Counted from the whole stretch's first letter, positions 11,523 through 45,000 are shown. The stretch is DNA of 62,953 nucleotides, filler included, from Folioceros fuciformis (GCA_049999805.1; 5 parts of 5 records of this genome joined end to end with filler, not necessarily neighbours in it); one strand, 5' to 3'. Numbers and translations: made by a program. Notes: generated from the sequence alone by a model not told the origin.

Positions 11523-13927
11523 TTATTCCTCAAGATGGTTCAATGAGAGGTCCCAATAATGTCCCACTCCAGCATCAGCTAGGTATTTCCTTGCAGCAAT
11601 ATCCGATCGGAAGGTCTGAATAAGAAACTTATCAAAACTGGGTTTGGCGACACTGCCCTGCCAGACTAAGACGCATTTGTTCTCACGAGGTGGAGCATCC
11701 TCATCACCTTCCTCCGCTTCCTTCACAGCTGTGGCCCAATTGATGCGCCGCAACATCAACTTACCATACCTTTTGATCGACTTCAGGCCGCCCTCAACAA
11801 CAACCACTGAGATAGAATCGGATATGACCACACATCCAGTCAGCCTATTCTCTTGTGCATTGACATCCACCTTAAACCGAGTCTGAGGGTGAGACAAGTC
11901 ATTCACCCGATAAACAGAGACAATCGTCTCTAAAGTATGAGGATCGTCGAAAAGCTTTTTCTCTTTCTTCTCCCGACGCTCTGCAGGAGTCAGCTTGCGA
12001 GCCAAATTCCTGTCTGTGTGTGCTTGCTCACGCTCAGCAGCAGCACTTTGAATTTCGTACTCAAGTTTGGTTGGATCCTGTGTTGCCTCTGCCCCTAAAA
12101 CCTTCATAAGATTACTCATCTTAATTTTTGGCTTCGGAGGTTCAAGCAGCCCCTGACGTATCATCTCCTGTCTGTCCTTCTCCTTAGCCAGCCGACGTTG
12201 TGTACGTAACTTCTTCTGCTCCTTCTTGGTAAGCTTCAAGGGCTGAGGAGGTGGAGGTGCTAATTCTGCAGGTGGCTCAATGGGAACAGGATGCTCGACA
12301 TAGATAGTCATCTTCCCATCTTTCACATTCAACTCGCCGTCAACATCCGGGTAGCTGGGACTTGATAATAGGACAGCATCCCTGCATTTCCACGAAAGAC
12401 GTGTCACCGGAAAAAAAAATTGTAACATAGAATCATGCAGGTCATCTGGAAAGCACAAGGAGGTTGTGAAGAACAGCCCGTACCACCACTCCACATCAGG
12501 AATCGGGTCCTTGCTCTTTGCTTCCTTTACAAGAGCCCTTTCAGTCAACTCAATGAGGTTAGGATTCACATCAGCATCAGCCTTTGCCTTAGCTAAGGAT
12601 GCCTGTTTTGCTTTGATTTCCTTCGCTTTAGCCTCCCCAAACTGATTCTGCACACACGGAACTTTGACAAGTCAGAAGAATCTGACTGCAACCGATAATG
12701 CCAACATAGATTGCCACCACTATCATCGTAACCTTCATAGACATACTCTGAGCCTCGCCATTTCTGCATGCTTGCTCCATTTTCCCTCCTCAACAAATTG
12801 AAAGGTTGGCTTCTTGGAACGGATGAGTTTCTTCTTGTCAACACCCATCCTTGCATCAAAGAAGGGGTTGTCAACAGGATCCTCCTCCAATTCTGGCCTC
12901 AATATTTGAAACGCCTCCTTCTTCCGCTTGTTGATATTAACCTTCGCAAGAGCCAATGTGCACCAGAGTGAGCTAATACGTCACCCTGGCCCTGCAAAAC
13001 TATGATTACTTGTCACCAGATGACAGCTGAAAGAGAAAGCGACACGGATTTTGTCATGTACAGCTTGAGCTAGTGCCAAACTGCTGTGCACTAGGTATGA
13101 ATGCAAGGAACAGCCACTACCTTGAGAGTACTGATGGTAGAAATTTTTGGTCGGTCCACCACGTTCCCACGCTCATCAACCTCCCTTCCCTGCGCATCGA
13201 GGCGAAGGACTGGAGCCTTCACAGTTTTTGACAGTCCCAATCCCATGTCGTCTCCCTGACCTGGCATTAATCCCATCAACGGCATTGTTCCTGGAGCCTG
13301 TGGAAATCCCATCCGGCTTACGATGTCTTGTGCCCGTTTGACAGCCTCAATATTGGACACAATGCCAGGTAGGCCAGACACATAAGCTCCACCCCCGAAA
13401 CTTGCACCGAGTTGCAGGGCAGAGTGACCAGGTGCCATGGCATTCGCAGTTGTTGGGGCAGCTGAGGACGCCGCACCGGATTCCGGTCTATCCGCTGCAA
13501 GCTTGGACACCTGCACCCAAACAGCTGAAATACTCACACGGGGCTCAAAATCCTTAGCAGCGAAGAAACTGCAACACGACATGGTTGCTGCTTTCGAGAC
13601 GAAAAAAAATGCTGATACCTTGGGAAAGCCCGGTAGCTTGTTAATCTTCTCCGTCAGCTCCTTCTGTTGCTGCAACGCTCTCTTAGCTTTCGCCAGCGCA
13701 TCCAGAGACAGCCCGACCGGTTGCGCTGCCGGCGCCCCATCTTGCACAGTGGGAGCCGGAGGCGCTGGGGCAGGCTTACTTAAGGGTGGTGCGGACACCT
13801 CGTCTCGCTTCCGTTTGGAGGCGGAAGGGACCTCATCCTGCTCCTTCCCCTGCTCCAGTTCCTGCTTCCTCTTAGTGCCCATCCTGGATCCCGAGTCCTC
13901 GCGCTCCTGCTTCCTCTTCATTCCCAT
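11523..13927 (-). CDS. PRP3: U4/U6 snRNP protein Prp3 (RDM16 homolog); exons 13927-13619, 13510-13121, 12941-12747, 12647-12484, 12381-11523
   Basis: APVLRLDAQGREVDE; STLKVNINK; KKPTFQFVEEGKW; IPDVEWWD; YVEHPVPIEPP; LTKKEQKKLRTQRR; FKVDVNAQENRLTG; LVWQGSV; GT-AG introns restore frame. Confidence 0.95.
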
Positions 13928-15404: not shown

Positions 15405-18400
15405 AGGGCGGTAGTGCTGATGGAGAGTAGGGCGATGGTGATGAACCTGGACCGTAGGGCGGTGGTGATGAACCTGGAGGGTAGGGTGGTGAAATGCCAT
15501 ATTGGTCACAAGCATAAGGACTTCGATAGGACCACTTGGGTGGCACAAGTGCGACTTACTTCTTCCTCCGAACCAGGTGCCAATCTTCTTCTAACAGATC
15601 CTCTAGGGCCGTCCCCGGAGGCTTCATTGTGGCTTCGAGGGCAATCTAATCACTTGTTGGCTCTTTTCCATGCTCGTTTTCCATGTCCTCGCCTCTTCCG
15701 ACGTCTCCCTAGGCGCCTACATGATGATATTCGCCTTGCTTATCGTCTTCCCTTGGATCGCCTTGCTGACCCGAGGGACCCAAGGGATGAGGGTGCTTGG
15801 ATTTTGTTCCTTTCCTGCCTAGATGGTGCCTTCGGCGCTCTAAGGGTGGTCTGTCAGGTCATAGGGAGGTGGCCTCTTGACTTTGCCGTTTTCAATCCGA
15901 AGATTGGCAAGCTCTTCAGGAGGAGGATTTACTAGCAGCAAAACCTCGATTGGAGTCAGCTAAGGTTGACAAGGTGTGCCATGACGCATTTAAAGCGCAT
16001 CTCAAGCGATGTCTTATGTTAGGCAGGGATGGTCAATATGCTCGGGCTGCTAGAACATTGTGTCTAGAGCCGGCTGCATCTGCAACTAAGGACACCATTG
16101 CTGCACTTCGTGCCCTTCATCCAGAACCTCATGACACTATACCGCAAGATCTTCTTGACCACACGGTCGAGGAGCCTTTTTGCTTGGATAGGGTTGGTTT
16201 TGGACATGCACTCTCTTCTGCGCAGGGGGTTTGTCTGGCACAGTTTATGACCATTTTCAAGATTATTTTNNNNNNNNNNNNNNNNNNNNNNNNNNNNNNN
16301 NNNNNNNNNNNNNNNNNNNNNNNNNNNNNNNNNNNNNNNNNNNNNNNNNNNNNNNNNNNNNNNNNNNNNTTGCATTGGAAAAGCTTACCTCAAGAGTGCG
16401 CCCTATTGCTGTAGAGGAGGTATTTTTGCGTCTTATCAGCCGAAGTATCACAATTCAACTTCAGGAATACTTCCAAGCGCATCTTGCACCCCACCAATTT
16501 GGGATTGCTACCCTAGGTGGGTGTGAATCTACCTCTCTCGGCATCTAGGCTACCCTTGAGTTACATCCTCACTGGGTAGCTTTGCAGGTTGATATTGAGA
16601 ATGCTTTCAACACCGTCTCTAGGGTCGCCATCTTCTCGGAGCTCAAGAGTGCAGGAGGTCAATTGGCAAGTCTTATCCCTTTTGTTCGTTCCTTCTATGG
16701 CTCGCCATCCAAGCTCTACTACCAATACGGCCCGACTATTGAGGGGGTCTCAGTTTTTGATTCAGCAACGGGCACAAGGCAAGGGGATCTGTTGGGGGGT
16801 GCTCGTTTTGCAATGGCGCATTTTCGTGCGTTGTCCTCTACTGACTTAGCATTTCAGGAATGCCTTTTCCCTTCCGTGGCTGATGACACTCATATTCTTG
16901 GGAAAGGAGTCACAGTCAACGCAGCATTTGATTTCTTCTCATCAGAGCTCTCCAAGGTGGGGTTGTGGCTCAAGCTATCTAAATGCGGGGTTTGGTCCCC
17001 TTCAAGCATCACTCCCCCCCTTCCATATTGGGGGGGGGGGATATCACCCCCTCGCATGGACTTCGAGTCTTGGGTGTGCCTGTGGGACCTCCTGATTTTG
17101 TTCATAGGTTTGTGGATGAAGCATTGGATGAAGATTTGGCTCATATCATGGACCTCTCACAAATCGGTGATCCTCATATTGCGTTTGGTATCCTTTCTTC
17201 TTGTTTTGTACGGCGACCAGGTTACCTCACTAGGATTGTTGTGCCTTCTCCATTTTTCTTATCAAGTCTCAGGAAGTTTGACAATCAAGTTATGCAGGCT
17301 CTTGGGAACATCATAGGTCCGGGCACCTTCGAGTGTGCTATCAGTGATTTGGCTCGGAAGCAGGCTTCTTTGCCAATCGCCCTTGGAGGGGTTGGTGCTT
17401 TGGCCATGAAGGCCTACACCCCAGCTACCTGTCTCGGCAGCTAGGCCCTCTCAGCTCCAATTTTGGCCTCTCGTTTTTTGCTACAAGATTCCCTTGTTCT
17501 TGAAAGTTTTATTTCAAGTGTTGAGGAGGGCGTTTTCCCTTTACAGGTATCTCTTAGGCAAGCGAGGGATTCTCTACCTTTGGAGGCTCATGAGGCTCTA
17601 CCTCCTTTCACTTCCTTTTCTAGGAAAGGGTTGAAGGGTCTCCAAGCCTCCCTCCCAGAAAAGCAATATGGCCAAGCACTAAGAGCCCTTCTTTCAGACT
17701 CATCCATCCCTAGGTCTTCTCGAGCTCGTATTCGATCTTGTTCAGGTAAAGGAGTGGGCTCTTGGCTTTTAGCTCGACCTTGCATCTAGGCGTTTCGAAT
17801 CGCACCAGCAACTTTCGCCACCGCGATGAGATTTCGCTTAGGTTTGGCCCACCCCTTGGCTTTTTCTCTCTCTACATGCCGTTGTGGGGTTGCCATTGTC
17901 GATACAGGGTCCCATTTGGCACGTTGTACCATTGGGGGGCACCACATTGCCACTCATGATCCAGTTCGAGATGTCATGTTCTCAATGGCTAGGGAGTATG
18001 GGTTTCTTCTGTATAGGGAGCGTCCATATACTTTGCGCAATGGGGTTTCACTTAGAGCCGACCTTTACTTCACTAGGGGAGAACAGGTTTGTGTTGCTGA
18101 TGTGGTTGTTACGGACCCCACTAGGAATTTGATTTGTGAGCATGTCATCATCAACCCCCCTGGTTGGGCAGCAAAGGGTTGTGCAAGTGCCAAAGTCCAT
18201 AAGTATTCTCCCTTGCAAGACAGGCATACTTTTATCCCCCTTGCTCTTGAGACTCGTGGAGCTATGGGCAAGGACTTTTCAAGGTTTATCAAGGAGTGTG
18301 CCAAGGTTTATTAGAGCAATAGGAATGGTGTTCTCCCTCTTTCCTTTGTGGTGGCCTTCTTTCGACAACGTATATCCATTGCTTTGCAACGAGCATTGGC

Positions 18401-23199: not shown

Positions 23200-23920
23200 A
23201 TGAGTGTGATGGAGGAAGCCTTCACAATGTTTTCAAATCTCGGAGACCATGAAGACCCAGTTAACATTGTTGTAGGCTCTCCTACAAAACACCAAGAAGC
23301 AAAAGCCAGAAGAACATATTATGTCAATTGGACATCTAAAGCAGCATCCACCTTGATAGATTCTTACTATGAGATGCATCTAGTGCATCTCAAGGCTGGA
23401 AATCTATTTACCAAACATTGGAGTGAGATTGCAAAGGAAGTTGGTAGTACTTGTCACCTTCAAGGTCTTTTAGCGAAGCAATGCAAGCAAAAGCTTGAGA
23501 ACCTCAAACGCAAGTACTGAAAAGAAAAGGAGACTCGCTCAANNNNNNNNNNNNNNNNNNNNNNNNNNNNNNNNNNNNNNNNNNNNNNNNNNNNNNNNNN
23601 NNNNNNNNNNNNNNNNNNNNNNNNNNNNNNNNNNNNNNNNNNCAACTAAACTTGGCCTCACTACCAAGTCATCGCCTGAGAACCTCAAATGCAAGTACTG
23701 AAAAGAAAAGGAGACTCGCTCAAGCACTAGCTAGGTCAACTAAACTTGGCCTCACTACCAAGTCATCGCCTGAGAACCTCAAACGCAAGTACTGAAAAGA
23801 AAAGGAGACTCGCTCAAGCACTAGCTAGGTCAACTAAACTTGGCCTCACTACCAAGTCATCGCCTCTCTGTGCGAAACCCAAATTTTCAGGCATTCCTAA
23901 TACAATGAACCATGGTAGAT
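23200..23920 (+). pseudogene. Myb/SANT-like (trihelix-type) DNA-binding ORF of a PIF/Harbinger transposon, disrupted
   Basis: WTSKAASTLIDSY..GNLFTKHWSEIAKEV..KQCKQKLENLKRKY*KEKE..WPHY, then KFSGIPNTM in another frame; in-frame stops and a 94-bp tandem expansion. Confidence 0.75.
23496..23864. repeat. 94-bp tandem repeat (3-4 copies across an N-gap) inside the Myb ORF
   Basis: TGAGAACCTCAAA(C/T)GCAAGTACTG...AAGTCATCGCC at 23496 (partial), 23677-23770, 23771-23864. Confidence 0.9.
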
Positions 23921-24384
23921 TTGGGAGCACTCGTAAGCCACATTTAAGTAGTTCCAGTGGCTCTTCGCGATATCACAAGGACAATAGTTGCGATGATGAA
24001 TTCCTTTGTGGGACACCTTTCCTACCTACCAAACAAGAAAGCTCACTCCACCCTACCATATATAGATTTTTATTTGGTAGGGAGGAGTGAGCTTCTAAAG
24101 GCTCACCCTAACATCACCATTGTATGTTTCTTGGATTGCTATGACATGCATGTTTTCTTCTATGTCCAAGCTCACAATTCGTGCTATGCATGTGATTTTG
24201 GTGAGCCAACTCCAAATGAGATTTATGAAGGAAAAAAACCCGCAAATAATCCTCTAATGTTGTTAAGGTAAACTAGTCAAACGAAGACGGTCTTCTTTTG
24301 GGCTTGGCAAAGACCTTGTGTTTGTGCTTTCCTCTTTTGCTGAATGTCTGTAAGTTATAGAGGTTGCGAAGATGACTCAATAGA

Positions 24385-24520
24385 TGGAGAACTTGATATG
24401 TGATCCATCAATGCAGCCCACCATGTTAGAAAATCTGGTTAGATCTTAAAACTTGGCAGAAATGATTTGTTGCCAGTGACTAGACATGGCCATGCAACAA
24501 ATTGTGAGAACAACTTCTTA
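24385..24520 (-). mobile_element. PIF/Harbinger DDE transposase fragment
   Basis: Minus-strand translation KKLFSQFVAWP / QQIISAKF*DLTRFSNMVGCIDGSHIKF; GCIDGSHI (24395-24418) matches the GAIDGSH first-aspartate motif of HARBI1/DDE_Tnp_4. Confidence 0.8.
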
Positions 24521-25629
24521 GGATAAACAACACCCAGTCTCAACTCAAAACCCTGGTGGCTAATGCCATGTTTTTAGGGCCTAACATAACTGCGCCTTCC
24601 CATTGGAAAGACATAGTTCCAACATCGCAATTATGCCTCATTTAGGCTATTTTAATGTATTAATGAAGACAGTAAAGGCGCTTTCCCTATTTGTCGATTT
24701 GTGGTTTACGTTGTGAAAGGCCCTGGCGAGCATGCTGACTTGGTTTCTATCATATTGTGCCCTTGAACCTTAAAAACCATAATCATGTGAGGAAAGAAAT
24801 GTAATGTTCTTTGTGGGTGAGAAAGAAAAAAGTCTTATATGTCGGGTGATGGCCGGGATGGCCACTACCGATACGGTCATGCCCATTAGCTTCAAAATAT
24901 AGGACTATATACTATACGGTAGTGTCAATACTATATATGGGACCTTGTCTTCTTAGTGTTTTTTTTGGCTTTGGTGAGTTTTGTGGCCCTCAGTTTGAAG
25001 TAATGCGATTTTTCAATCTTGCTTTCAGTGTGTTTTTATTATTATTTTAGTTTATTATTTTTAATAAAGAATTAATTAATCCTTATGGCATGCAGACGCA
25101 CTCCAGACTCCTCTTAGCCGCGCTCATCAAACCGCTCCATTTTTATCCTTGCTTTTATATATAATAATATTTTATACAATAAATAATCTTACTCTTTCTT
25201 TATTCAAAGTTTTGTGCTGCTCGAAGAGAAGTGGCGAGGCGCGGTGATTCAAATGTTAGAAGATTGGACCAAAATTAGCTATAACAAATTCTGGTACAAA
25301 ACCTCTGAGAAATACTAAAATACAGTTGTCTAAGGTACAAACTACAGTACACAGACATTTGGTGAAAGCTGGGCATCTAAGGTCCCGTCAGTAGGCAGAA
25401 CCCTGCAGAGGTTTCACAGAGTTTTAGGATCTCGGGCTTGGTAAAGGCTGCGCACCGTTCGGAGTTCTTGTCCTAGACATCTGTCTAATGCCCTCCCCTC
25501 CATACAACAACCTCCACAGATTTGTTTGTGGCTCCCCCAGGTCTCGCAGCTGGTGCTAACTCCATTCCTTGCTGGAACTACCTACTGATGCTCACCAGAC
25601 ACAGAGTGCACAAGACCATAGTCTCCTAA

Positions 25630-28542
25630 TCAGTTCAAAGGAGCCTCCGTCCATGTTGGATTTTCTGCAGAGATAAACGTCCTTATGCTTTCTGGAAGCA
25701 GGTCAAAGCTGTCTAATCTCCAACCTGTCATGTGCATAACAGCATTATCCGCGAAGGGAGGGGTTGATCCGACACGTAGCATGGCGCAATGGTTACTGAC
25801 GTCTTCATCTGCTTTGTCCATAAAGTATTCATAGCTTTCGTACGACTGATAGTTCCCTGCACACAGATAACAGGTTTCAATGCCTGCCGCTGCTGTTAAA
25901 GGAGAAGTGCGAAAGAAAGGAAGGCAGGAAACCCAGACCATTAGGCGTTCGAAGGTTCACGAAGACTGGACAGTTGAACGACAGCAGCGTCGTATTCTTC
26001 AAATGCCGAGGGATGACGAGACTCCCTCTCAAAGGTACAAGGGGCTCCCCTTGTCCATTACATGCCTGGTACAGGTTAAGATGGGAGTCAGATTCATAAT
26101 GTGAATTCCAAATGCGTAGGCCGCATCGAACCATCAAAATGCACCACTGCAGTCACCTCGGTCAGAAGCTGACCGCCCTCCAGGCTGTACGCCATCTTTT
26201 GGTATCGATACAACACAGGCAAGACCTTCGCACCCCGAAACTCTGTCAGCACCTCGTTGGAGCTCCTGTCGCGGAAAAGATATACTTTTCTTGACAGCTG
26301 GTAAAACTTATGTGCTCCTACAGCCACAGCCCTTGTGACTTCCAGACCCTCTACATTGGCGAGCACCTCCCCTCTGGGGAATTCGTAAAGCTCGCCAGTG
26401 GTGTACCAGAAGACAGTTCCTCCCCTTCTCCCAAGCCTAAGTGAAATCCACCTGTGTACAGCATCAAATCGCAAGCTCTCAGGAAATCAACCCACAAGCT
26501 CTCATACCCTCGACAAGTGCAACCGGGATTCCCACCAGGCAAAAAGGGTACCTCTGAAAGTTGGGCTCATCAAAGTAGTCGTTATCAACCGTCTTGAGAA
26601 GTTTGTCTCGGTAGTTGATCTTGGTCTGCAACACCTGTACCTCGCGTGACTGCTGCTCAAGCTCGCGCTGCCGTTGAACAAGAGCTTCCTTGGCTAGCTC
26701 AACCTCCCTCTCCCTTGCACTCACGCTTGACAGTCTTATTTCCAAACGAGCACCCTCTTTCCTGATCCTTTCATCAGTGAGCCTTCTCTTTTCATCCTTC
26801 TCTTCTTGTAGTAAAAGCTGCTGCTCTCTATCCTTCTCCAGCCTCTTCTTCCATTCAGTCTCTTGAGCAGATTTCCACTTTTCTCTTTCCTCCATTAGTC
26901 TTCTCTTCGTCTCCTCGAGCAGAACGGCTGTAATTTCTTCCTTATGTGCGTTTATCTTTTCGACCCACTGAGTCTGAAGTTTCGCAACCTCCTTCATCCT
27001 GTCTTCATCTAACTGCTTCTGACAGGCCAGCTGTTGGGCAAGCTTCTCTTCCTCCAAATCAACTCTACTTTGTTCCCAAAGCTTGGCCTGCTCCACCTTC
27101 CTTGCCTTCGCTAACTTTGACTCAAGCTCCGTTTCCCAGGCCAGCCGCTGGTTCTCAAGCTCTTTAGTACCTTCCTGAACTTGTGCAATCAGTGCTGCTT
27201 TTTCTTGCTCCGCTTCCTTGATCTTGGTCTCAAGCTCAACTTTTACCCTTTCATTTCTTGCGATATCAGCCCTCAACTTTTGCAGTTCGTCACCGAGGGT
27301 CACAAGTTTGGCACTAGACGATGCGTCTGCTTGCTGTATTGCAGACTGCGCCATTCTCCTGGATTCGGCCTCCGCTTCTCTGAGCCTCAGGTTCTCGCCC
27401 TCCACTTTAGCTAAAACTAGACAAACGTCCTTCAATTTAGCTTCCCTAGCAGCTCGCTCGTCTGCTATCACCTCCTGCGTCCTTCTGCTCGACTGAGCCA
27501 GCAGTTCTGTCTGCTGCCGATTTTTCGCTTCCAAAGTAGCAAGAACGAGCTCAAGGTGAGAAATCTTGGCCTCTGCATTTACCTGCGCTTGCCCTTTCTC
27601 ACGAATTTCCTGAGCCGTCTGTTCACGTAGTTGAACATAATCTGTCTCCAGTTGCGAAAAAGTCTGCATCCTATCCTGTTCCGCCCTGGTCCAGTTCTCC
27701 GTCTCTGCCTCCCTGTGCAACCGTAACAGTTCTCGCTCCGTCTCAAGCCTTTGAATCCACTCCTTGTCAAATGTCTTCAGATACACCTGTTCCAGGTTTC
27801 TCCTATTCTCTACCAGTTCGACATCCCTTACGTATTTGTCCCGCTCAATAGACAGGAGGTCATTCCACTCCTTCTGGAAAACATCCAAGTAATACGTCTG
27901 CTCTGCTGTCACCCCAATTACGTGATCAGAAGGCTCTGTCGCATCGTATGGCTTCACCACATTCTCACTGTGCAACATCTCAGTTGCATTCCCCTCCATT
28001 GCAAACTCGGATTCCATTAAATCATCCTGTCTGACGGGTACATTTCGCTGGACTCCCTGGATAGCTGCGCCGTCTTCCCTGCGAAGCTCTAGCTGGTTAC
28101 TCTTGCATTCAGAATCAACACCCCCTCTAAAGGAATCCATCATACCTTCTTCTTCAGCAACAGCAGGAGTCTGCAGCATCTTCTCAGTTCCTTCGTCCGT
28201 CGGACACACCAACTTACGAACGCCTTCCTCTACGGCGGCTTCCAGGTTCTCCGATACAGCGCAGGCACCATTGCTGCCTTCCCGCTTCTCGGAGGCTGCA
28301 GGGGCTGGCTCATCACCACCTAATCCACCCACATTCTCCCGTGCAGGCAATACGCTGCCATCCTTCTTGGTTCTGTCTCGGTGCTTAGCAAACACATCCC
28401 GCGATCTCTCTGGAAGGCCTCTTCTCCAAGTACCTCGTGCCGCATTGTTACCTCCTGTTGCTCTAGAACCGTGATGTTTCACGGCATTGCCTAAAGAGTA
28501 CCCAACATAGGCCGCAGCGATTGCTCCCAATACACGGATCAT
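25630..28542 (-). CDS. Predicted 879-aa protein: hydrophobic N-terminus, acidic linker, long coiled coil and C-terminal DUF1838-like domain; exons 28542-26552, 26451-26157, 26065-25939, 25856-25630
   Basis: GT..CAG introns of 100, 91 and 82 nt join four ORFs in frame (2640 nt); C-domain RWISLRLG..VFWYTTGELY..VEGLEVTRA..QLSRKVYLFRD..NEVL..LDSFDLLPESIRTFISAENPTWTEAP recalls DUF1838 (recognised from memory, not searched). Confidence 0.8.
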
Positions 28543-29079
28543 TTTTCCCGCCGGATTCAGCGCTCACAAGTAGCGACTTCACGCCTAGACGAGCCGGTTC
28601 GTAGCGGGAGGCCGCGCTATGTCTTTGTGAACCAAGCTTAATCATTGTATTGTAGTTGGATAGCGATCTGAGACGCTGTAGTAGAACGGGGCCCTACCAG
28701 CCCCACGCTCATGGACGCAGGCGGAGAGACAACACACAAAAATCGAGAGCATGACCATGGCGCCAAATCGCAAGCCATGAGCCTCTTTGTTTCGGGAGAA
28801 CGGAACCATGGAGACCAGGGAGCTACATCAACCACAGACGGATCGTTATCAGGCGCCAAGAGGACAGCATAGCGCTCACGTCACGAGGCATAGTTGGCGA
28901 GATAGAGTGGAACACACATCTCGACACCTGGATAATACTTTCCTTTTCCGTCAGAAATTTTCTCTGAGGATCTGCTGCTACGCTAGGCTTGGTATCAACG
29001 CGTCAGAGAACGATGTAGTCTAGGGTTAGGTTGGCCCGGGGACGAGTGCTCAAGAGGAGGTGCCTTGAAGGACAGCTCG

Positions 29080-30158
29080 ATGATTGCCCTCACCATTACC
29101 AGGAGCTTTGGCAAGGTGTTTTTTGGGCGGGCGTCTGCAAGGCTGCTATATAACCGTCCGGTAATTCGCAATGCGGCGGCGTCAGGGGGAAGCAGTTTTT
29201 GGGTGCTGGCGCCAGTGGAAATGGGCAGGAGATCCTCCAAGATTGCCATGCGTAAGGGCGTCCAGGATGCCAAAAAGGCGAAGCTGTATGGCAGGCTGGG
29301 CAAGCAGATCGTGACAGCAGTGAAGGGGGGAGGCCCCAATCCTACTGCCAATGTGGAGTTGGCTGCTTTGATAGAGAAGGCCAAGCAGTATGATATCCCC
29401 AAGGACATCATCGAAAGGTAGGCTATGTTATCTTCCTGCCTCTCCATCGACACTTGAGATCTCAAAGGAGCAGCCTTCCCAAACTGTGGTTTTGCCGATG
29501 TTCAGTTGCCTTCATGTGGAAATGCTTGCAGCCTGAGTGTGTCCTCTGTAGTATCATTCTGCAGCGCTTCTGTGGGCAACCGCCCCTGTTTCACATGTAA
29601 GGTACTCGACGCAGGAACATCAAGAAGGCCTCAGAGAAAGGCCAGCAAGACTTTGTGGAAGTAATGTACGAGGTGTATGGGGCTGGCGGTGTGGGGATCC
29701 TGGTGGAAGTTCTGACCGACAACTCCAACAGAACCGCTGCCAATGTGAGGGACATCGTCAAGAAGGGTGGGGGCAAGATGGCAAATCCAGGCTCAGTGTT
29801 GTTCAAGTTTAAGCGGTCGGGCATAGTATATGTGAATGCCAACGAGGTTGAAGCTGACGAAGTGCTGCTGGCCGCCATGGATGCTGGGGCAGAGGATGTC
29901 ATCGATCCCTCACCCGATGAAGCAGAGGAAGACCGCGACAAGTACTTCAGGGTTGTCACACCTGTTGAGGAGCACGCTTCCGTGCTTTCGAAGCTGAAGA
30001 CGGGGGGCTTGCTGGTGGATGCCGAGAGCTCTGGTCTAGAAATGATCCCCGTGGATACTGTGACTCCAGACCCTGATGCTGCCGAGGTGAACAACATTCT
30101 TGTCGACAGACTGCTTGAGCTAGATGATGTGGACGCTGTGTACATTAATCAACGGTAG
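29080..30158 (+). CDS. YebC/PmpR/TACO1-family protein with probable organellar transit peptide; exons 29080-29417, 29615-30158
   Basis: MGRRSSKIAMRKGVQDAKKAKLYGRLGKQIVTAVKGGGPNP..IPKDIIER|NIKKA..YEVYGAGGVGILVEVLTDNSNRT..GSVLFKF..LLELDDVDAVYIN. Confidence 0.96.
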
Positions 30159-30853
30159 TAGAGTTGCTGTTAGGGCAGGCTTCCCAAGCCTCAAGAGGGG
30201 GTTATTGTGAGCTCCGAGAACCTTCAGTGGACGTCCCTCGACACCCACTTCCCCTGCAGATGAAGGTTGGCCGCATTTACCCTCATGCACATTCCTTCAG
30301 TGTTTCCCTGTCCCAGTGCAACTGTAGTGCTTGTGTACGAGCTTTCGAGGTGAGCGGCCAGGGGGCCTTGTCTTTTTTTTTTTCTCCATGCAGTAGCAAT
30401 GCAATTACCATATCCAAACGGAATCCTTGTAGAAAACAAACACAGTAGTGCGTGCCGAGTCGTGAGCGGTCAGGTGAACCAATTGATCATAAAGAGACGT
30501 GCTCCTGTCGGGTTGCTGTCTGAGAGAGCCGCGGTGAGACGATGCCGATCGTGGTCGCTTCCTGGGACCAAAGGTCGTTGGCCATGTGCTCCACTTGTCA
30601 CGGTGGTTGAGCAGGAAGTAGCAGGTTTTTGGGTCGCTGGAGCAGAACGGAAAGTATCGCCTTGTCCTCGCAGCCTCCGCCCCAGCAGCAGCTCCGCTCG
30701 CGGCAGGAGCGAGGAGCAGGCTGCGGCAACCCTAGCCGGTTGGGGGAGCGACAGAGCTGGCTGCTTGGCTAGCTGAAGCCTCTAGTTGAGCTTCAGCTGT
30801 CGTGCTACTCTAGGCAGTGCTGTAGCGGAAGCAAGCGAGCAGCAGCCATGGCG

Positions 30854-30953
30854 NNNNNNNNNNNNNNNNNNNNNNNNNNNNNNNNNNNNNNNNNNNNTTA
30901 ATTAATTAANNNNNNNNNNNNNNNNNNNNNNNNNNNNNNNNNNNNNNNNNNNN
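30854..30953. other. Assembly gap with artificial six-frame-stop linker (also 48593-48692, 55950-56049, 60821-60920)
   Basis: Identical 100-bp N..TTAATTAATTAA..N blocks. Confidence 0.97.
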
Positions 30954-35742: not shown

Positions 35743-38700
35743 TGTTAGAGTAAATGCCTTTTACCCTAGGTTAACCTGACTTAGATTAGTGGTTTATTAC
35801 CATAACTACAGTTAATACTTTTATTTGTATATATTTGGATCTCATTCATTATTCAAGTGCTTTTTCACAATTCTCTTTGTACACAGAATATTTCTGCAGC
35901 GTATCATGGTATCAGAGCCCAAAACAACATTTTTATTTGTGGTATTGGTCAGATGCCTGTGCACATGAGTCTTGCTCAGTAATTTGCTGAATGGGAACTC
36001 GTGTGCTAAGGTTCTGATCAGAACTTACACAATTTTGAAGTGTTAGATGTTCATGGGTGTCTAAAGAAAATTTCCTAAATAATTTTTCTAGATTAGCCAC
36101 ATGAGGTAGAGGCACTATGGCCAAAGGCAGAGGGTGTCGGGTTTTTGAATCACTTCATCCCGGTTACCTCAGTCTGCAACAAGTTGCTTGTGATATGCCT
36201 GCATGTCCAAGACGGAGAGATGTGAGGAATCTATTCAGAAGTGCCCAATTTCCAACAGAGAAAAGACAACCTGGATGTTTTCGAAGGGAACATAGGCTTT
36301 GAGTGAATCGAGTAGGTGTCTTGGAGCGGTGTCAACAACTTTGTGATGAGTTTCAGGAATCCTTGCTGCTGTTGTTGGATCTGCAAACACAAGTGCACAT
36401 TATCGAGCACATGCTGTTACAACTTATGCCTATGATCAGTCAGAGATTTACAGCTCTTGAAGACGTGGTAGCCCAGAATTGCTCTGCTGCTCAAGAGTTG
36501 TTGCTACTGATCAAGTGCTCGAAATCTACTGTCTCAGCTTGTGATTCCAAGGTGGCAATGTATCTTCCGTCCCTAAGGCTGCCTTGCGCTCTGTCACAAG
36601 CTCCAGCCTTGCTCTGACCAGTTCAGATTTGAAGAGGCGCGCTCAAGCTAAGGCGAGAGTGGTTGGTGCTGATCGGTGGGGTTTCTCCTGTCGGTTGCTC
36701 CTACACCTGCAGCGCCGGCCCCTACTGTTCTAGTGTCGAGGTTTGATGCGGCGTGTTTGGAGCTTATGCCTTGATCGAGACTCAGCCCTCAGCTCTCGTG
36801 GCGCTGCCACATGCGCATGTCTGCCTCCCGTGTAGCGTCTCCCTCTCTTGAGTTGTGCCCTTTCATGTCTCGGCTTTGGTGTCTTTGAGTTTTCTGGGTA
36901 TTTCGAACCGGTACTTAGTTAAAACTTTAAAAAAAGGAAACCTTAATTAAGTTTCTTTTGGTTTCTGTTTGTTTTAACTCTTCATCTTTGTGCATGTCTG
37001 CCCACTCTTCTAGTAGTGAGTCAGAAGATGTAGTTGAGCCTGATTCTGCTGATAGATTTGCCACTACCGATTCTGAAGTTGAAGACCAAATTAGGTTAAA
37101 TACCCAAATTACTTTGACACTACAAGAGCTTGCTAGATCAATTTCTAGTCCTCCTGTTTCTCAACCAGTTGCTCCTATTCCCTTCAACATGACATCAGCC
37201 AGTGGTGCCTCGACTTCTTTTGGATTAACTTATTCAGGTGAATTTAAAGAAAAGGACAGGTTTGATGGGAAATCCTCCCGATTCGAAAGCTAGCGTGCTC
37301 GGATGTGAGCCTTCTTGGACACTAGGGATGTGTGGGAGTATGTTGACAGATCACTTCCCAAGCCTGATCCTACTGATCCAAGAGTTACACAAGACATGAT
37401 TGATAAGTGGAAGAAGGGAAATAAAATAGCCTTTGCTATTCTACTCTTAGGCCTGGATGAGACAACAATGATTGAAGTTGAGTCCTTGCCAACTGCAGCA
37501 GAAGTTTGGACACAGTTGAAGGACACTTACCAGGTCCAGAATATTCTTACACTTATACATGCAAGAAATGAATTCTATGGCCTGAAGTTTTGCTATGGAG
37601 ATCCAGTGGGACCACATATTGTGAAGTTTTGCCATATGCGATCTCAACTAGCTGCTCTTGGATGCACTATGACTGAAGCAGATGCAATTGCTCAACTGCT
37701 TTCCAGCTTATCAATTTCTTATCAGAACTTTGTGTCAAGCCAGAATGCCTCAATTCACGCTTCTTATCAGGCTGTGAGTGCTGGTAAACCTTCTCTTATA
37801 ACGTTGAATGACTTGATTGGGGCCCTCCTGCAAGAGGAACAGAGCCGCCAGAAGTCAGGGCCTTCGTCTCGCCTTCGGGGAGAGAAGGTGCTTTACGTTT
37901 CAAAAGGAAAAGGTCCAAGATGCAGCAATAAGAACAAAAAGGAGGGATACTCACCTCGTCAATCTTCCTCCCCTGTTGTGAAGCGATAGGGCACTTGCAA
38001 TTGGTGTCAAATCCCAAGGCATTGGGAACGTGACTGTAGGAAGAAAAAGGTAGGTGAACCAAAGAAGGAGGGTCACCTTGTGGCTCAGGTTAGTACCAAG
38101 GAAGCACCTTCAAGAGTACAGCAGCACAAGAGTAGCAGTTCTGTTCTAACTCTTTGTCTCACCTCAAGTAAGGAGAACTCCTCCATGTGGTTTGTGGACT
38201 CCGGGTCCACTTCGCACATCTACAATAACAGGAATCTATTTTCTATGTTCAGCTATCAAACACCTTTTCGTACTGTATATGTTGGTGACTCTAGAGGACT
38301 TGAGGTTGAAGGAAGTGGTCAAGCTAACATACCACTGTTGGATGGCACCTCCTTGCAGCTCTTTGATGTGTTGTATGTACCGCCTATGAGCAAAATTTTG
38401 CTCTCTGTTAGAGCAATTACCTCTGCTGGACAATATGGATTTAGCTTTGAGCACAACCACTGTTTTCTTTACAGAATAAAGGATCCACGGTATTATGTTG
38501 CTAAAGCTATTTTGCAGGATGATTTGTATCAGTTGGATACCTCTTCTCCTTGTAGTGTTCAGGCGTTGGTGGCCTCTAATTCTCTTCAAGCTAAGCTTTG
38601 GCATGCACGTTTGGGTCATGTCAACCAGTCTAAACTCAATCTGATGTCCCATCTAGCTGCTATCGTGATAAGTTGCCTTCCTATTTCAAGCACCTTGCAC

Positions 38701-41116
38701 CCTGCAGTGCTTGCATATTGTCTAAACAAAAGGAGCTTCCCTTTAAAAATCATATGGCTACAAGAGCTAGAGCAGTCCTTGAGTTGATACATGCAGATCT
38801 TGCAAGGAAACTTCCAATTAAATCTCTTGGTGGGTCTGAGTATTACTTATCTCTCACAGATGATTTTTCTCGCTATACCTAGACTTTTCCTTTGCAGCTG
38901 AAGAGTGATGCCTTTGATCATATTTCCACATGGATTCCTATGGTTCAAAGACAAACAGAACATTTGGTTAAGTGTTTTCGCACAGATAATGGTGGCGAAT
39001 TCACTAGACATAGGTTTGATGACTTGTTTCAGCTTTATGGAATTACAAGGCAACTAGTTGTCTATTCCATACACACAGCAGCAAAATGGTGTGGCTGAGA
39101 GAAAGAATCAAACCTTAATGGGTATGACCAGAAGTATGTTGGCTTGGGCAGGTCTTCCAAAGTCCTTTTGGGCTGAAGCTGTGGTTGCTACCACTTATAT
39201 TTTGAATAGAGTTGTCACAGCTGCTCTTCCAAGACGTACACCTTATGAGGCGTTTTGGGGTCGCAAGCCAAGTCTTCTTCATCTTCGGGTCTTTGGGTCT
39301 CCAACCTTTGCATTTGTTCCTGAAGCCAAAAGGGGGAAATCAAATCATAGGTCCAAGCCCTTAGTTTTTCTTGGCTACTCAGAAGAATCCAAGGCCTATA
39401 AGCTATTTGACCCTCAGACACATAGGATAACACTAGCTCGTAGTGTTACATTTAGGGAGATTACCTCTTGTAAGTCTGACTCTGTTTGTGGTGATGTTGT
39501 TCCCTTGACTGCTGAGTTGGATGAATCTTCTAGTGAGGTTTCTTCAGTCATGTTTCCTCTATCTGATGGTGGTCTGGATACATCTACTGGCTCCACCATT
39601 CCTGCCACTGGTGATCAGCATATAGATGCAAATTTAGAGGGAGTTGGTGCTACAGTCGCTGATGTACCTGATGTGTTTGATCAATTGCCTTCTGATGAGG
39701 ATGTTGTTGATGAAGAGGATGCTGGGCTTGGAGACTTTGTTGCTCAACCTCTTGAAGAGGACCCTCCTCTTAATGCTGACCCAGCTCCACGTTACCCTAT
39801 GCGTGAGCGTCGACTACAGGATCAGTGGTTAGAGCAGCCATATCAGTCTATTGATTTTAGGAAGCCCTCAGCCCATGTAGCTGCTATCTCTATACCTGAT
39901 GTGAGACTTGATCCTCAATCGTATAGGGAAGCCTTGGAAGGACCTGATGGAGCACTTTGGCGCATCTCTATAGCTGATGAGTACAACTCTTTGATTAAAA
40001 ATAACGCTTGGGAGCTAGCAGACTTGCCACCTGGGAGGAAGCCCATTACATGTAAATGGGTGTTTAAGACAAAGCTCAAGGCTGATGGGACTATAACTAG
40101 ACATAAATCTCGACTGGTGGCACATGGCTTCAGTCAGATACTAGGTATTGACTATGGTGATATCAACCTTTAGTCCTGTTGTGAAGCCGCCTTCAGTGCG
40201 CATTCTTCTAGCTATGGCAATCGAGTTCGATCTAGAGCTCCATCAGATGGACGTCTGCACTACCTTTCTTCATGGAGAGTTGGAAGAGGTCTTATACATG
40301 ACACAGCCATAGGGTTTTGTTAGTAAGGAGTATCCCAACAAAGTATGTAAGTTACTCAAGACTATATATGGCTTGAAACAGAGCCCAAGGGCTTGGTTCA
40401 AACGGATAATGAAGTTTCTGAAACAGTCTGGTTTTTGTCAGTCTTCAGCAGATTCAAATGTTTCTTACCAGTCAGAAAGTGATTTGTTTGTGATCCTTGC
40501 CTTATATGTCGATGATGCAATCTTGTTAAGCAACAGTCTTCATTAGCTGGATAAGGTGAAGGCTCTCCTACGATCAGAATTTGAAATGACTGATTAGGGA
40601 CCTTTGCAATTTTGCTTAGGAGTACAAATACTTAGAGACAAACAGCACGGGATCATTGTTCTTCATCAAACTAAATACTTGAAGGAAATCCTTACCCGTT
40701 TTCATTTGGAAGCTGCTCGTCCAACTACTACACCGTTTGTAGTGGGAGATAAGCTTACCATTGAGCAGTCTCTACAGTCTGCAGCTGATAAGGAAGACAT
40801 GGCTTTAGTTCCGTACGCAGAAGCTATGGGTTGTTTAATCTTCTGTGCAAACTGGACCAGGCCAGATATTTCGTACGCTGTCAGCATGGTGTCCAAGTTC
40901 CTGAAAAATCCTGGTAGGTCTCACTGGAATGCTGCTAAAAGGATTTATAGATATCTTAAGGGCACATTGAGCTATGGCCTGCACTACACATCCGATGGGA
41001 GGAGTGAGTTTTCACTTACAGCTTTTGCAGACGCAGATTGGGCAGCTGATACCGATTCCAGAAGAAGCCTTTCAGCATATGTTTGTTTGTTGGCTTCTGG
41101 TTCGATTAACTGGTCT
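35743..41116 (+). mobile_element. Ty1/Copia LTR retrotransposon: short 5' LTR ~35743-35906, PBS-Met 35907-35919, gag-pol ~37190-41116 with stops, 3' truncated
   Basis: CA|TGGTATCAGAGCC; gag knuckle CNWCQIPRHWERDC; protease WFVDSGSTSH; LWHARLGH; integrase RTDNGGEF / PYTQQQNGVAERKN; RT LYVDD; RNase H FADADWA. Confidence 0.95.
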
Positions 41117-42093: not shown

Positions 42094-45000
42094 TGTTGAG
42101 TTATCGAGCTCTATATGAGCTAAACTCATGTGGTGTTAGTTATCCCGGTTGGGTTCACACTAGACTAGTTTTAGTTATTAGTGAACCAGTTAACTTGTGG
42201 ATTTGATAGTATATATAGAGGCACTTAGAATAGTGTAGATTATCCCATATTGAACCTTGAAGTTGTGTACCCCTAAATGTACTACTTAAATGGAGACCTC
42301 GGATCTCTATAGTAAGATAGTAGTGATATGTATTGTTTTTGGTTGTGACCACCAATACCACCCTCTCCTCTTCTCTCCTCTCCTACACTTGCACATAGAC
42401 TAGAGTCAATCCTATTGACATGGTATCAAAGCTTGAGAGCCAGATTGCTAGGCGTAGCACAGAGCTGGAGAGGCAGGCGGCTACACCTGAAGGCGGTGCA
42501 AGATCGGCGTAGGAGGTGCTGCAAGAGGCAGCAAGAGTGCACGGCGGTGCAAGATCGGCGTAGGAGGCGCTGCAAGAGGCAGCAAGAGTGCACGGTGGTG
42601 CAAGATTGGCGTAGGAGGTGCTGCAAGAGGCAGCAAGAGTGCACACCGGGAGTTGGAGCAGCTACGAGGAGTTGGAGCAGCTACGAGGAGTTGGAGCAGC
42701 TTGGAGGGAAATTGGCAGCAAGTGTCCCGGCAGCTAACTCTCACATCGGTGTGTGCAGGAAGTGAGGAGAAGGGCGACAAGGCCCTATCGGCCTGCCGGA
42801 CGGGCTGTTGATTCCCGGAGCCCTGTGGAAGGGCTGACAAGTGGAGGCAATAGCTGTAGCAGCCTCAGCAGCTGCAAGAAAGTGTGCTAACCCTAGCTTG
42901 GTAGCAGGGAAGGAATTGATAGGAAATCTCATATGAGCTTTGTCTAGAAAATTCCGTAGGAGCTTATTCCAACAAAATCGGCAGGAGGCCGTAAGTTGTT
43001 TTGGTAGAGGCCATGGGCAGACCGTCAAGAGTCTATAAGGACACGGAGCATGAGACAATCTGGTTCACGCAAGGCAACGTGATTCCGCACCAGATTGCTC
43101 TTAGGAAGCAGAGACTTAAGGTCGTGTGAGTAAAACTCCAGTTAGAAGTAGTCTGGTTCTTGCAGACATTTATTAGGTGTGAGTACTCAAGAAGGATTGA
43201 GTATCAACCTTGAGTGGTGGCAGGAATGGCCAGTGATAGTATTAACTAGATTGTGTAGGAGAAGCTGGACAAAAACAACTTCCATGCCTGGAAGTTTTGT
43301 TTTATAAACTTTCTCATGGGAAAGGGGTATTGGGACTACATTGAGGGGGAGCATGAAAAATCCCTTGTAGTACTTGAACAGAATGCAACAGCGGAGCAGA
43401 TTAAGGCGCTGAAGGAGTCAAGGATCTCGGAAGGTCATGTATTGGCTGTCAATCAGCATTCATGACACCATGATTGGGCACATACAGGATGTAGAGTCAC
43501 CCAAAAAAGCATGGGATGAGCTGGTCAAACTCTATCAGACTAACACAAAGGCGAGGAAACTGCAGTTGAAGAATGACTTCAACATAGTTACGAAGAAGAA
43601 CTTGACAATCAATGAGTACACGTTAAAGATCAAAGGGATAGTGGAATCCCTTGCATCCATTGGTGTCAGTGTAGAAGATGACAACAAGGTCGAAGTTTGC
43701 TTGCGCGGGTTAACACCTGCCTATAAGCAGTTCAAGACTTCCATACAGACTCGGGAAAACATTCCCAATTTCTCATACCTGATTTCTATGTTGGTCATAG
43801 AGGAGAAAAACCTAGGCAAGGAATCATCCTCTAAGCCTAAAGAAAACTTTGAGCAGGCCTTCTACTCTGGCAAAGGTAGAGGTAGAGGTAGAGCCCAAGG
43901 TAGCAGAGGGCAAAGAGGTGGTAGAGGTAGAAATTCCTACCAAAATCAGCAACAGAATCAGGAGTCCTAGTATAAGAGTACACGTGTAAGAGGAGAAATT
44001 TCTCGAGGCTGGGGGAGTCAAAGAGGATGTGGAAATCAACAACAAAATGATGCAAATACAGACAATAGTGGTTGCTGTACTTGTGGTAGGTTAGACCACT
44101 TCGAAAGAGACTGTCCACGGAGAAATCAAGGCAACAGGAGGCAACAGAACAATTATGCCTCTAGCAGTAGTCAGAATGACTCGGACAACTTGTTTGTCAT
44201 GCAGCATACGCTTAACTCTGTGTCTGCTAATGGATCCAACAATGGTGAGATTATGTGGTATGTGAACTCATGAGCTTCAAACCACATAACATGCCATGGG
44301 GAGTGGTTCAAAGAAATGCAAGTGCTTGACAAACCTGAATATGTGGAAACTGGAGATGACACAATACATGCAATTGTGCATACAGGTGCTGTACCTCTGA
44401 AGATGCAGGATGGCAAAGTGAAGTGCTTGGTAGATGTTCTTCACGTACCCAACATCACAAAGAACATGGTGTCGGTTGGGCAGATGGTTAAGCAAGGACT
44501 GCAGGTTAGGTTTACACCTGTAGGACTCTTCGTTGAAGAATGCAAGAAAGGTGGTTGCCTAATTGCTCAAGGATAGAAGGTTGGACGGATGTTCATCTTG
44601 AACGAGGAGGTTCCTAAGCTGAGGTCAGCCATGTTTGCGAAGGGTATAAGGGTATTGGCAGACCTAGAGATGTGGCACAAACCCATTGGACATGTGAATG
44701 TGTAGAAGTTGAAGTCCATGCAGCATCAGAAGGTTGTCTCAGGCATACCCAAGCTTATAGCAAATGGACTACAAGGTGTATGTGAAGCATGTCAACTTGG
44801 GAAACAGCCCAGGAATGCGTTCCCCCATGACAAATGTGTCAGCAGACATGTGTTGGATGTTGTGCATTCAGATGTATGGGGTCCTACACAGACTACATCA
44901 ATCGGAGGATGCAAGTACTATGTGACCTTCATTGACGACCACAAAAGGAAGGTGTGGGTCTATTTCATGAAAGAAAAGAGTGAAGTGATCACTCATTTTC

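Follow-up and report, generated by a model that had tools for sequence, protein, structure and literature searches.

We analyzed a 62,953-nt stretch of DNA from Folioceros fuciformis (GCA_049999805.1; five parts from five records of the genome, joined end to end with filler and not necessarily neighbours in it), hereafter the window, and report on a minus-strand gene at positions 25630-28542 whose 879-aa product carries an N-terminal hydrophobic segment, a long charged linker and rod, and a C-terminal DUF1838 domain. That these positions hold one gene and that its product belongs to DUF1838 is, as a joint claim, close to certain. On balance we read the product as a signal-anchored, coiled-coil-stalked, ligand-binding barrel, perhaps situated on the outer membrane of an organelle. 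The gene represents an old green-lineage family whose members have been deposited as hypothetical proteins, and not a new fusion.

The gene appears in the window as four minus-strand open reading frames (ORFs), 26479-28563 (694 aa), 26094-26486 (130 aa), 25877-26152 (91 aa) and 25630-25956 (108 aa), which a sequence-only reading of this DNA had joined into one spliced gene with canonical introns. The joined exons give a 2640-nt coding sequence that encodes 879 aa and has a single terminal stop. Exon 1 (26552-28542; 1991 nt; minus strand, like all parts of the gene) starts with the ATG at 28542-28540, there being no other in-frame ATG between the upstream stop and 28542, and encodes residues 1-663 plus 2 nt of codon 664. 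Exon 2 (26157-26451; 295 nt) encodes residues 664-762 and the first half of the predicted barrel, exon 3 (25939-26065) is 127 nt long, and the coding part of exon 4 (25630-25856, with the TGA stop at 25632-25630) encodes the last third of the barrel and the C-terminal helices. The three introns, located at 26452-26551 (100 nt, inserted after 2 nt of a codon), 26066-26156 (91 nt) and 25857-25938 (82 nt), are all of the GT..AG type.

The splicing was examined on the contigs of a public sequencing run, whose label as RNA is only a guess and which contains 0.89 of the sampled words of 25500-28700. Among the contigs aligned to positions 24000-30800, one of 4694 nt aligns with 0 mismatches and 0 gaps in the pieces 25220-25855, 25938-26064, 26156-26449, 26550-29415 and 29613-30383. 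Two other runs gave no aligned contig, and positions 24000-25219 were left uncovered, which carries no weight as evidence. The first three intervals between these pieces (82, 91 and 100 nt) are bounded by CT..AC, which is GT..AG on the minus strand, and the fourth (197 nt, GT..AG) falls in the plus-strand neighbour gene. Because the contig lacks four canonical introns, each oriented as its gene, it derives from spliced RNA. Its 100-nt joint (26449 to 26550) is the 26552/26451 junction once ambiguous bases are allowed for, and thus the junction that the sequence-only reading had named as its test is present; together with the open frame, this bears out the joining of the four ORFs. The contig covers exon 1 without a break, supports exon 2 in agreement with the joined model, covers exon 3, and runs past the stop into a probable 3' untranslated region (25220-25629), although contigs cannot show the true end of a transcript. 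A contig that spans two genes and a 537-bp spacer also does not demonstrate a single transcript.

A coiled-coil gene and a separate DUF1838 gene could have been wrongly joined here, and the gene callers used on relatives do give an exon 1 ORF (P0001) and an exon 2 ORF (P0002) as separate proteins. However, P0001 and P0002 are ORF calls that end at intron boundaries, and in the window the contig links 26552 to 26451 (unless it is an assembly chimera) and the frame stays open. The full-length proteins of Mesotaenium and P0142 are continuous across the same ...DFFDE..F..W... junction. Moreover, the match to the DUF1838 profile already begins 14 residues upstream of the exon 1/exon 2 junction, so intron 1 lies inside the domain, which excludes two genes and leaves a wrongly joined pair hardly credible.

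By sequence comparison, the C-terminal ~230 aa is a divergent but genuine DUF1838 domain at the edge of the Pfam model. An exhaustive phmmer search of 1.84 billion representatives, with 98 exon 2 residues as the query, retrieved 83 proteins at E<=1e-3; stricter limits of E<=1e-10 and E<=1e-30 leave 29 and 2 of them. A word-index search with exon 2 gave no match, which reflects its sensitivity limit, since the exhaustive search found 83. Among the 83 proteins, 33 reach the DUF1838 cut-off of Pfam (PF08894, gathering score 25 bits) and 52 match DUF1838 at E<=0.01, and other Pfam families occur only in three apparent chimeras or fusions (EFG_C, PRA-CH and SnoaL), none of them recurring. We built one profile from the 33 proteins that pass the cut-off and another from 29 of them, with the four closest green-lineage sequences omitted and two other green-clade rows still contained. 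Residues 650-879 of the spliced protein match the 33-protein profile in a single stretch with 248 bits (E 3e-78 for a single target) and the 29-protein profile, again in a single stretch, with 222 bits (E 3e-70 for a single target). The window protein keeps 26 of the 32 columns that are conserved at >=75% among 60 other domains, and four of the six differences are conservative. In addition, all 30 matches of an Atlas search with the homologue P0005 are DUF1838 clusters (score 0.95). The resemblance to DUF1838, which the sequence-only reading had proposed, is therefore upheld by the 222-bit profile match, the conserved columns and the Atlas clusters. Two results count against the assignment. 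In the Pfam scan, which was applied to the unspliced pieces, positions 4-68 of the profile match the exon 2 ORF with 16.6 bits (E 0.0072) and positions 178-213 match the exon 4 ORF with 14 bits (E 0.045), so that both matches, which are collinear, stay under the 25-bit cut-off, and 31 of the 83 phmmer matches, including the Mesotaenium and Riccia proteins, have no Pfam DUF1838 match at all.

One Brevundimonas genome carries two DUF1838 genes, one of which scores 230.7 bits against Pfam, and the other (P0013 type) scores 26.8 bits against Pfam and 300.8 bits against our own family alignment. With two such unlike copies, DUF1838 therefore comprises at least two deep subfamilies, and the window protein falls into the one that Pfam models poorly. 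A strong match to the family alignment was found in only 4 of 301 sampled Pseudomonadota genomes. None of the 88 proteins of the domain family (the 83 phmmer matches and five from the alignment search) has a described function.

The window's domain is predicted to be a closed antiparallel beta-barrel of 10-11 strands with short helices. The AlphaFold2 model of P0005 (69 aligned sequences) has a mean predicted local distance difference test score (pLDDT) of 94.7 and a predicted template modelling score (pTM) of 0.89, and it shows eleven strands followed by three short C-terminal helices. Comparison of this model with 48,161 representative chains by VIA-align returned 13 chains at Z>=8. The soluble 10-stranded barrels matched by VIA-align include BFA1 (Z 10.4), Rv2717c (Z 10.2) and Rv0813 (Z 9.6), the bilin lyases CpeS (Z 9.1) and CpeT (Z 7.0), nitrobindin (Z 8.8) and the nitrobindin domain of THAP4 (Z 8.2), the spirocyclase OlmO (Z 8.6) and a DUF3598 protein (Z 9.5); Arabidopsis CRL (6lix) matched at Z 6.3. 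Nitrobindin/THAP4, Rv2717c, Rv0813, BFA1, CpeS and CpeT resemble the P0005 model as up-and-down closed barrels of similar size, and the soluble-barrel alignments (Z 7.0-10.4) cover 116-140 residues with a root-mean-square deviation of 3.2-4.2 A and an identity of 4-10%. Several points tell against reading more into this model: the folded protein is a Spirogloea homologue of 218 aa (52% identical over 204 columns) and not the window's own domain; the top VIA-align match is a designed 10-stranded membrane barrel (Z 12.2); Foldseek of the P0005 model against the PDB gave nothing at E<=1e-3; and the Z of 9-10 for soluble barrels is little above the best Z of 7-8 that is typical for models without a true match. 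Since these values lie close to the background, they indicate the fold class, a closed up-and-down barrel of about ten strands, and not kinship. A sequence search of the PDB likewise gave no match to exon 2 and only two chance-level rows (E ~0.5) with the domain profile.

Ahead of the domain, the sequence-only reading had described a hydrophobic N-terminal segment, a basic and then acidic linker and a coiled-coil region of ~420 aa, and both the composition and a heptad test agree with this description. The hydrophobic segment, residues 1-21 (MIRVLGAIAAAYVGYSLGNAV; 28480-28542), is weakly hydrophobic (Kyte-Doolittle mean 1.49 over 17 aa) and ends in the GxxxG-type motif GYSLG (residues 14-18). 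The linker, residues 22-231 (27850-28479), is probably disordered. Its residues 22-61 are basic (12 K+R, 4 D+E, net +8) and its residues 62-231 are acidic and rich in proline and glycine (14 K+R, 35 D+E, net -21; 8 Pro, 16 Gly), and it matches no Pfam family. The rod, residues 232-649 (26596-27849), is composed of 418 aa with 0 Pro, 5 Gly, 83 K+R and 90 D+E, its commonest residues being E, L, R, A, Q and K; the proline-free interval extends from residue 205 to 659, and the globular C-terminal part occupies residues 650-879. Exon 1 as a whole has no Pfam family and finds only generic coiled-coil clusters in the Atlas (scores 0.78-0.83). Identity to P0001 is 90% in residues 1-21, 33% in the linker and 37-65% along the rod, where values of 37-43% give way to 65% in residues 521-663 beside the barrel.

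The rod was submitted to two home-made heptad tests, one of a/d occupancy (L, I, V, M, F, Y, W) and one by Fourier analysis. The a/d occupancy in the best register lies above that of shuffled sequences (z 3.7, reached by 1 of 500 shuffles), and the same test gives z 3.0 for the rod of P0001 and z 3.3 for that of Mesotaenium (P0007). P0142 (z 0.6) and the control region, residues 31-231 (z 0.7), do not rise above shuffles. The Fourier test speaks against heptad order, as 608 of 1000 shuffles reach the observed value at period 3.5 with alanine counted as hydrophobic. We accept residues 232-649 as a coiled-coil-like rod on these sequence features. The motif EW..[LR]L..ER occurs three times in the linker and rod (residues 221-238, 257-274 and 559-576, all in exon 1), and all three copies are kept in P0001 and one copy in P0142. 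Since coiled coils seldom contain tryptophan, the motif may serve in binding.

We next turn to the relatives of the protein. A search with exon 1 gave one match, P0001 (781 aa, 48% identical), which after upstream extension of its ORF begins MIRVLGAVAAAYVGYSLGN and ends ...FFDESNFDR, precisely at the boundary of exon 1 in the window. Exon 2 has 65% identity to P0002, and P0001 and P0002 come from 14,176-nt contigs of the same source, from which we infer that they lie on one contig. Names were obtained for 30 of the 83 phmmer matches and for eight matches of the alignment search, with each representative standing for a 50% cluster. The named green-lineage sources are Mesostigma viride (two proteins), Spirogloea muscicola, Mesotaenium endlicherianum, Micromonas pusilla and the liverworts Marchantia polymorpha (MPTK1_2g21060), M. 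paleacea, Riccia fluitans and R. sorocarpa (two proteins), and a Pelagococcus transcriptome entry clusters with Micromonas at 90% identity. The other named eukaryotes are the dinoflagellate Ansanella and the diatom Seminavis, whose protein is called DUF1838 by its source, and the bacterial rows are an uncultured Brevundimonas and a Bacteroidota/Kapabacteria cluster annotated as "DUF1838 family protein". No vascular plant is among these named matches, which is not proof of absence.

A hydrophobic segment precedes the domain in 16 of the 19 green-clade proteins that have upstream sequence, and two of the three proteins without it have cluster mates with one. It starts at residue 1 in 8 of the 16, the streptophyte ones; the prasinophyte-like segments, unlike that of the window protein, are more hydrophobic and lie 13-76 residues from the start. 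The segment ends in G[YF]xxG in 12 of the 16, compared with 3 of 55 other matches (first 110 residues), although the 12 are not independent, since five are from liverworts and the window protein and P0001 are close kin; they nevertheless span prasinophytes and streptophytes. Because G[YF]xxG recurs in this way, the anchor is ancestral to the green clade; contrary to what the sequence-only reading had supposed, it was not gained in this genome. The window protein itself combines such a segment, the G[YF]xxG end and a place in the green clade. The design common to the group in prasinophytes, Mesostigma, zygnematophytes, liverworts and this genome is thus an anchor, a variable linker and DUF1838.

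The green orthologues (ME000369S06369, MPTK1_2g21060, KAL2644744.1, Mv02255, Mv10617 and XP_003059799.1) share the anchor, the charged linker and the C-terminal DUF1838 domain with the window protein and fall into one clade with it. The Mesotaenium protein (ME000369S06369; 728 aa) is closest in layout, with a hydrophobic N-terminus, a long charged linker, a coiled coil, ...NDFFDEASFKSW... and the domain, and its coiled coil stands ahead of the same DFFDE..F..W junction, but its rod is ~150 aa compared with ~420 aa in the window protein. P0142, a transcriptome protein of 501 aa that may be incomplete, has a coiled coil and the domain without an anchor. The liverwort proteins (563-596 aa) begin MFRVVGAVVAAYAGYKYG or MLRVVGAVVAAYAGYKYG and continue with a long charged linker that has no heptad character by the a/d measure and then with the domain; by the measure used, no rod was detected in proteins of the liverworts, Mesostigma and Micromonas, unlike in the window protein. 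The long coiled coil fills the linker in one streptophyte sub-lineage only; Mesotaenium, P0142 and P0001 have one too. The description of the gene as a novel fusion does not stand, as anchor, linker and DUF1838 are also joined in Mesotaenium, Mesostigma, M. polymorpha, M. paleacea, R. fluitans, R. sorocarpa and Micromonas pusilla. With this gene, the anchored DUF1838 family would reach at least one land-plant lineage beyond the liverworts.

Bacterial DUF1838 proteins (Brevundimonas WP_297800908.1 and Bacteroidota) resemble the window protein in the ~230-aa domain and in the motifs F..W..R.G, WY..G, QLSRK, Y.YQ, YE.YDYF, PPF and LP. They are 200-300 aa long with a signal peptide directly before the domain, whereas in the window protein an anchor that looks uncleaved is followed by a linker of 210 aa and a rod of 420 aa, and its gene has three introns. 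In the liverwort orthologues (P0144, P0143, P0008, P0145 and P0146), several family-wide residues that the window protein keeps are replaced: E-R stands in place of the R-K pair, Y.YQ lacks its Q, and there are differences at P795, F797 and Y813, yet the anchor is almost unchanged. These replacements may reflect an altered or lost ligand site.

The age of the gene was assessed from a tree and from intron positions. The tree of 59 domains (quick IQ-TREE, LG+C20+F+G4, unrooted) was computed without a further 29 domains, which were fragments, same-cluster duplicates or the SnoaL fusion. In it, Spirogloea, Mesotaenium and Riccia join the window with 99% support in the Shimodaira-Hasegawa-like approximate likelihood ratio test (SH-aLRT), and this inner clade sits within a green clade of 14 rows (98% SH-aLRT). 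The sister of the green clade (92% SH-aLRT) is a group of 20 rows, most of them starting with signal peptides, to which the two named bacterial rows belong, and the diatom and the dinoflagellate fall into a separate clade of 21 rows (99%). Forcing the 35 eukaryote-like rows into one clade is 1.3 log-likelihood units worse and is not rejected by the approximately unbiased (AU) test (p 0.48), with groups that were chosen after the tree had been inspected. Because the tree is unrooted and a single clade is not rejected, no donor, direction or number of transfers can be named. As the anchor and the domain are common to chlorophyte and streptophyte members of one clade, any transfer is older than their split, and the green-lineage gene, its anchor included, predates the separation of chlorophytes and streptophytes.

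The introns point in the same direction. On a metagenome contig (L020), an exon homologous to exon 2 (57% identical) is followed, where the window has intron 2, by a longer intron and then by a homologue of exon 3 that ends where the window's exon ends, so that intron positions 2 and 3 are common to both. The similarity of the ORFs P0002 and P0003 breaks off exactly where exon 2 ends, and the introns must therefore be old. The sequence-only reading had proposed a bacterial domain that was horizontally acquired or patchily retained and that gained introns and a tether here. For such a fusion peculiar to this genome, one can point to the Atlas clusters of the family, which are mostly bacterial, and to the two named bacterial rows in the sister group of the green clade. 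However, the green sequences form one clade with anchor and domain in chlorophytes and streptophytes alike, the coiled-coil form is also present in Mesotaenium (P0007), P0142 and P0001, the intron positions are shared with L020, and a single clade of all eukaryote-like rows is not rejected. Thus, a recent transfer specific to this genome is contradicted by the sequence comparisons, and we consider the fusion in this form very improbable. Of the two options, acquisition in this lineage falls away, and patchy retention fits better, no vascular-plant name having been seen among the 30 of 83 phmmer matches and the eight alignment-search matches with names.

For the protein we propose the following arrangement. 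The N-terminal segment would be an uncleaved signal anchor that sits in the outer membrane of a plastid or mitochondrion, with the remainder of the protein exposed to the cytosol. The rod would probably form a parallel dimer, helped by the GxxxG anchor, and this dimeric rod would hold two barrels tens of nanometres off the membrane, where a small ligand, hydrophobic or anionic, would be bound or acted upon by the barrel, as in other soluble 10-stranded barrels. Of the single steps, membrane anchoring is likely; that the barrel binds or converts a small ligand is rather probable; and a cytosol-facing position on an organelle outer membrane is put forward only tentatively.

Long charged coiled coils are mostly cytosolic, and a charged, proline-free rod of 420 aa would be most at home in the cytosol. 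By the positive-inside rule, the net charge of +8 in residues 22-61 would likewise place the C-terminal side there. A rule by which low hydrophobicity and a basic flank mark outer-membrane anchors is said to come from Lee et al. 2011. On the Wimley-White scale values used, the mean hydrophobicity is below 0.4 in 14 of 14 anchors, and residues 1-18 of the window protein average 0.00 (octanol) and 0.11 (interface). At least three K/R follow within 20 residues of the anchor in 12 of the 14, and the window protein has three K/R and two His in this stretch, in line with such a basic flank. According to the available text of PMC4010795, signal-anchored proteins of the plastid and mitochondrial outer membranes have no cleavable targeting sequence and differ from those of the endoplasmic reticulum (ER) by a hydrophobicity below 0.4 and at least three basic flanking residues. 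Because the segment combines low hydrophobicity with basic residues directly behind it, the outer membrane would fit better than the ER.

The protein could instead be secretory, with a cleaved signal peptide or a type II anchor and with the rod and barrel in the lumen of the ER or Golgi, in the vacuole or outside the cell. Several observations pull in this direction and thus weigh against a cytosolic barrel. Most bacterial-type matches consist of a classical signal peptide directly followed by the domain, so these homologues are exported; in prasinophyte and Mesostigma members, 4-8 K/R lie within the 20 residues that precede the segment, the prasinophyte ones having more basic residues ahead of it than the streptophyte ones; and from both, the barrel could be luminal or extracellular. 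The streptophyte segments are only weakly hydrophobic (Kyte-Doolittle 0.9-1.7), residues 16-18 (S-L-G) fit the small-x-small pattern and could be usable as a signal-peptidase site, and several members of the diatom/dinoflagellate clade begin with a strong hydrophobic region. In the searched literature, DUF1838 occurs only in table rows of Streptomyces gene clusters, PF08894 and Mp2g21060 are not mentioned, and no localisation, topology or ligand data were found for any member. The secretory arrangement is opposed by the net +8 directly behind the segment, which favours a cytosolic C-terminal side, by the low hydrophobicity of the segment, by the mostly cytosolic occurrence of long charged coiled coils, and by a content of just 8 Cys in 879 aa. 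The segment is also 90% conserved compared with P0001, and prasinophytes through to liverworts retain its G[YF]xxG; for a signal peptide that is cleaved off, this would be unusual. A secretory protein is rather unlikely in our view, yet a serious alternative, and the anchored, cytosol-facing arrangement is preferred.

At least 4 of the 21 proteins of the diatom/dinoflagellate clade (P0066, P0032, P0039, P0044 and others) have a strong hydrophobic start followed by small-x-small-F. In the available text of PMC4329603, an ASAFAP-type signal is described for plastid proteins of algae with secondary plastids. The starts of these proteins are reminiscent of it, which offers a lead for plastid targeting in this clade.

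The barrel might be an enzyme, such as a cyclase, hydratase or isomerase for a substrate resembling a lipid or polyketide, which the anchor and rod would only position. The conserved columns of the domain are largely polar or charged (R718, K719, Q748, E811, Y813, R832 and R851 in window numbering), and they are better explained by an active site or a defined ligand than by a wholly hydrophobic pocket. The spirocyclase OlmO is among the fold neighbours, P0079 has SnoaL-type domains downstream of a weak DUF1838 match, and, as far as the available portions of the papers go, DUF1838 genes stand in the tables of two Streptomyces biosynthetic clusters. On the other hand, fold similarity alone shows no function, the liverwort orthologues are retained although several conserved residues are replaced, and the bacterial gene neighbourhoods are inconsistent over four loci. 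We also know of no catalytic motif for the DUF1838 family. An enzyme, as against a passive binding module, is a rather unlikely reading in our view; the barrel may bind its ligand or convert it. A TonB-dependent receptor gene adjoins the DUF1838 gene in two of the four bacterial loci (L002 and L019, not L017 and L018; L003, from the same genus as L002, was excluded from the count), and this neighbourhood was judged too weak to serve as a clue to function.

Two plastid-surface proteins invite comparison with the proposed arrangement. As stated in the available part of PMC4911103, CHUP1 is attached to the outer envelope of chloroplasts through a hydrophobic N-terminal region, forms dimers by way of a coiled coil, and includes a motif that binds actin, a region rich in proline and a C-terminal domain that is conserved. 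The window protein is similar in layout, with an N-terminal hydrophobic region followed by a coiled coil, but its residues 232-649 contain no proline, its exon 1 has no Pfam family, and its C-terminus is DUF1838. Membership in the CHUP1 family was rejected because the defining C-terminal parts are absent; the likeness would be one of membrane mounting only. The first ~15 residues of CHUP1 may also be similar to the window protein's anchor. CRL, a plastid outer-envelope protein according to the accessible text of PMC3355566, is like the proposed product in having a bacterial-type beta-barrel (6lix). It belongs to a different family, its Z against the P0005 model is low, and it has no coiled coil, so that the likeness is one of fold and layout only.

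These results supply a clear family assignment and a checked model for a gene which is broken up by ORF-based callers. They also indicate that DUF1838 exists in green algae and bryophytes as a predicted membrane-tethered protein with a conserved GxxxG anchor, and an orthologue, MPTK1_2g21060, is carried by the genetically tractable Marchantia polymorpha. If the barrel binds a tetrapyrrole or lipid at the organelle surface, the family would bear on the exchange between organelle and cytosol in early-diverging plants; if it does not, this is one more conserved hypothetical protein. As a long shot, anchored DUF1838 proteins could form an unrecognised green class of organelle-surface proteins, in which a dimer in the plastid or mitochondrial outer membrane would carry a tetrapyrrole-, bilin- or lipid-binding barrel on a stalk of evolving length into the cytosol, would serve metabolite hand-over, organelle-to-cytosol signalling or contact sites, and would have been lost in vascular plants.

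The neighbour of the gene is a divergent TACO1/YebC gene on the plus strand (29080-30158; 293 aa; exons 29080-29417 and 29615-30158), with Pfam matches to PF20772 (E 6.1e-22) and PF01709 (E 5.6e-46) and a single contig-supported GT..AG intron of 197 nt (29418-29614). Its product has ~47 aa ahead of the conserved domain (6 K+R, 1 D+E, 7 S+T), an extension that looks like an organellar presequence. The ATGs of the two genes lie head to head, 537 bp apart (28543-29079), and the divergent pairing that had been noted from the sequence is thereby borne out. A single spliced contig spans the complete spacer, which suggests that the 5' ends may overlap or adjoin and arise from a bidirectional promoter.

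The rest of the window contains further recognizable elements. An intron-less ORF of 933 aa at 4784-7582 (minus strand) encodes a PLS-class PPR protein with an E motif (PPR_2 E 1.3e-78, E_motif E 4.6e-11), a class linked to organellar RNA editing in land plants. A polyubiquitin ORF with five ubiquitin units (2349-3599, minus strand), a proteasome subunit ORF (9935-10723, plus strand) and a PRP3 splicing-factor ORF (11526-12671, minus strand) are also present. A search of the whole window with Rfam gave no match. Pieces of copia-type long terminal repeat (LTR) retrotransposons with gag, pre-integrase, integrase, SH3-like and RVT_2 domains, together with a weak RVT_1 match, lie with broken frames at 37309-40170, 44706-45491 and 16549-17313 (all plus strand). 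Paired runs of 44 N with 12 bases between them occur at 30854-30953, 48593-48692, 55950-56049 and 60821-60920 and single runs at 3306-3315, 16270-16369 and 23543-23642, and these may be gaps or masked stretches. Adjoining ORFs at 56222-60089 (minus strand) encode Roc and COR-A domains (426 aa) and leucine-rich repeats (851 aa), and they may be parts of one ROCO-type GTPase gene.

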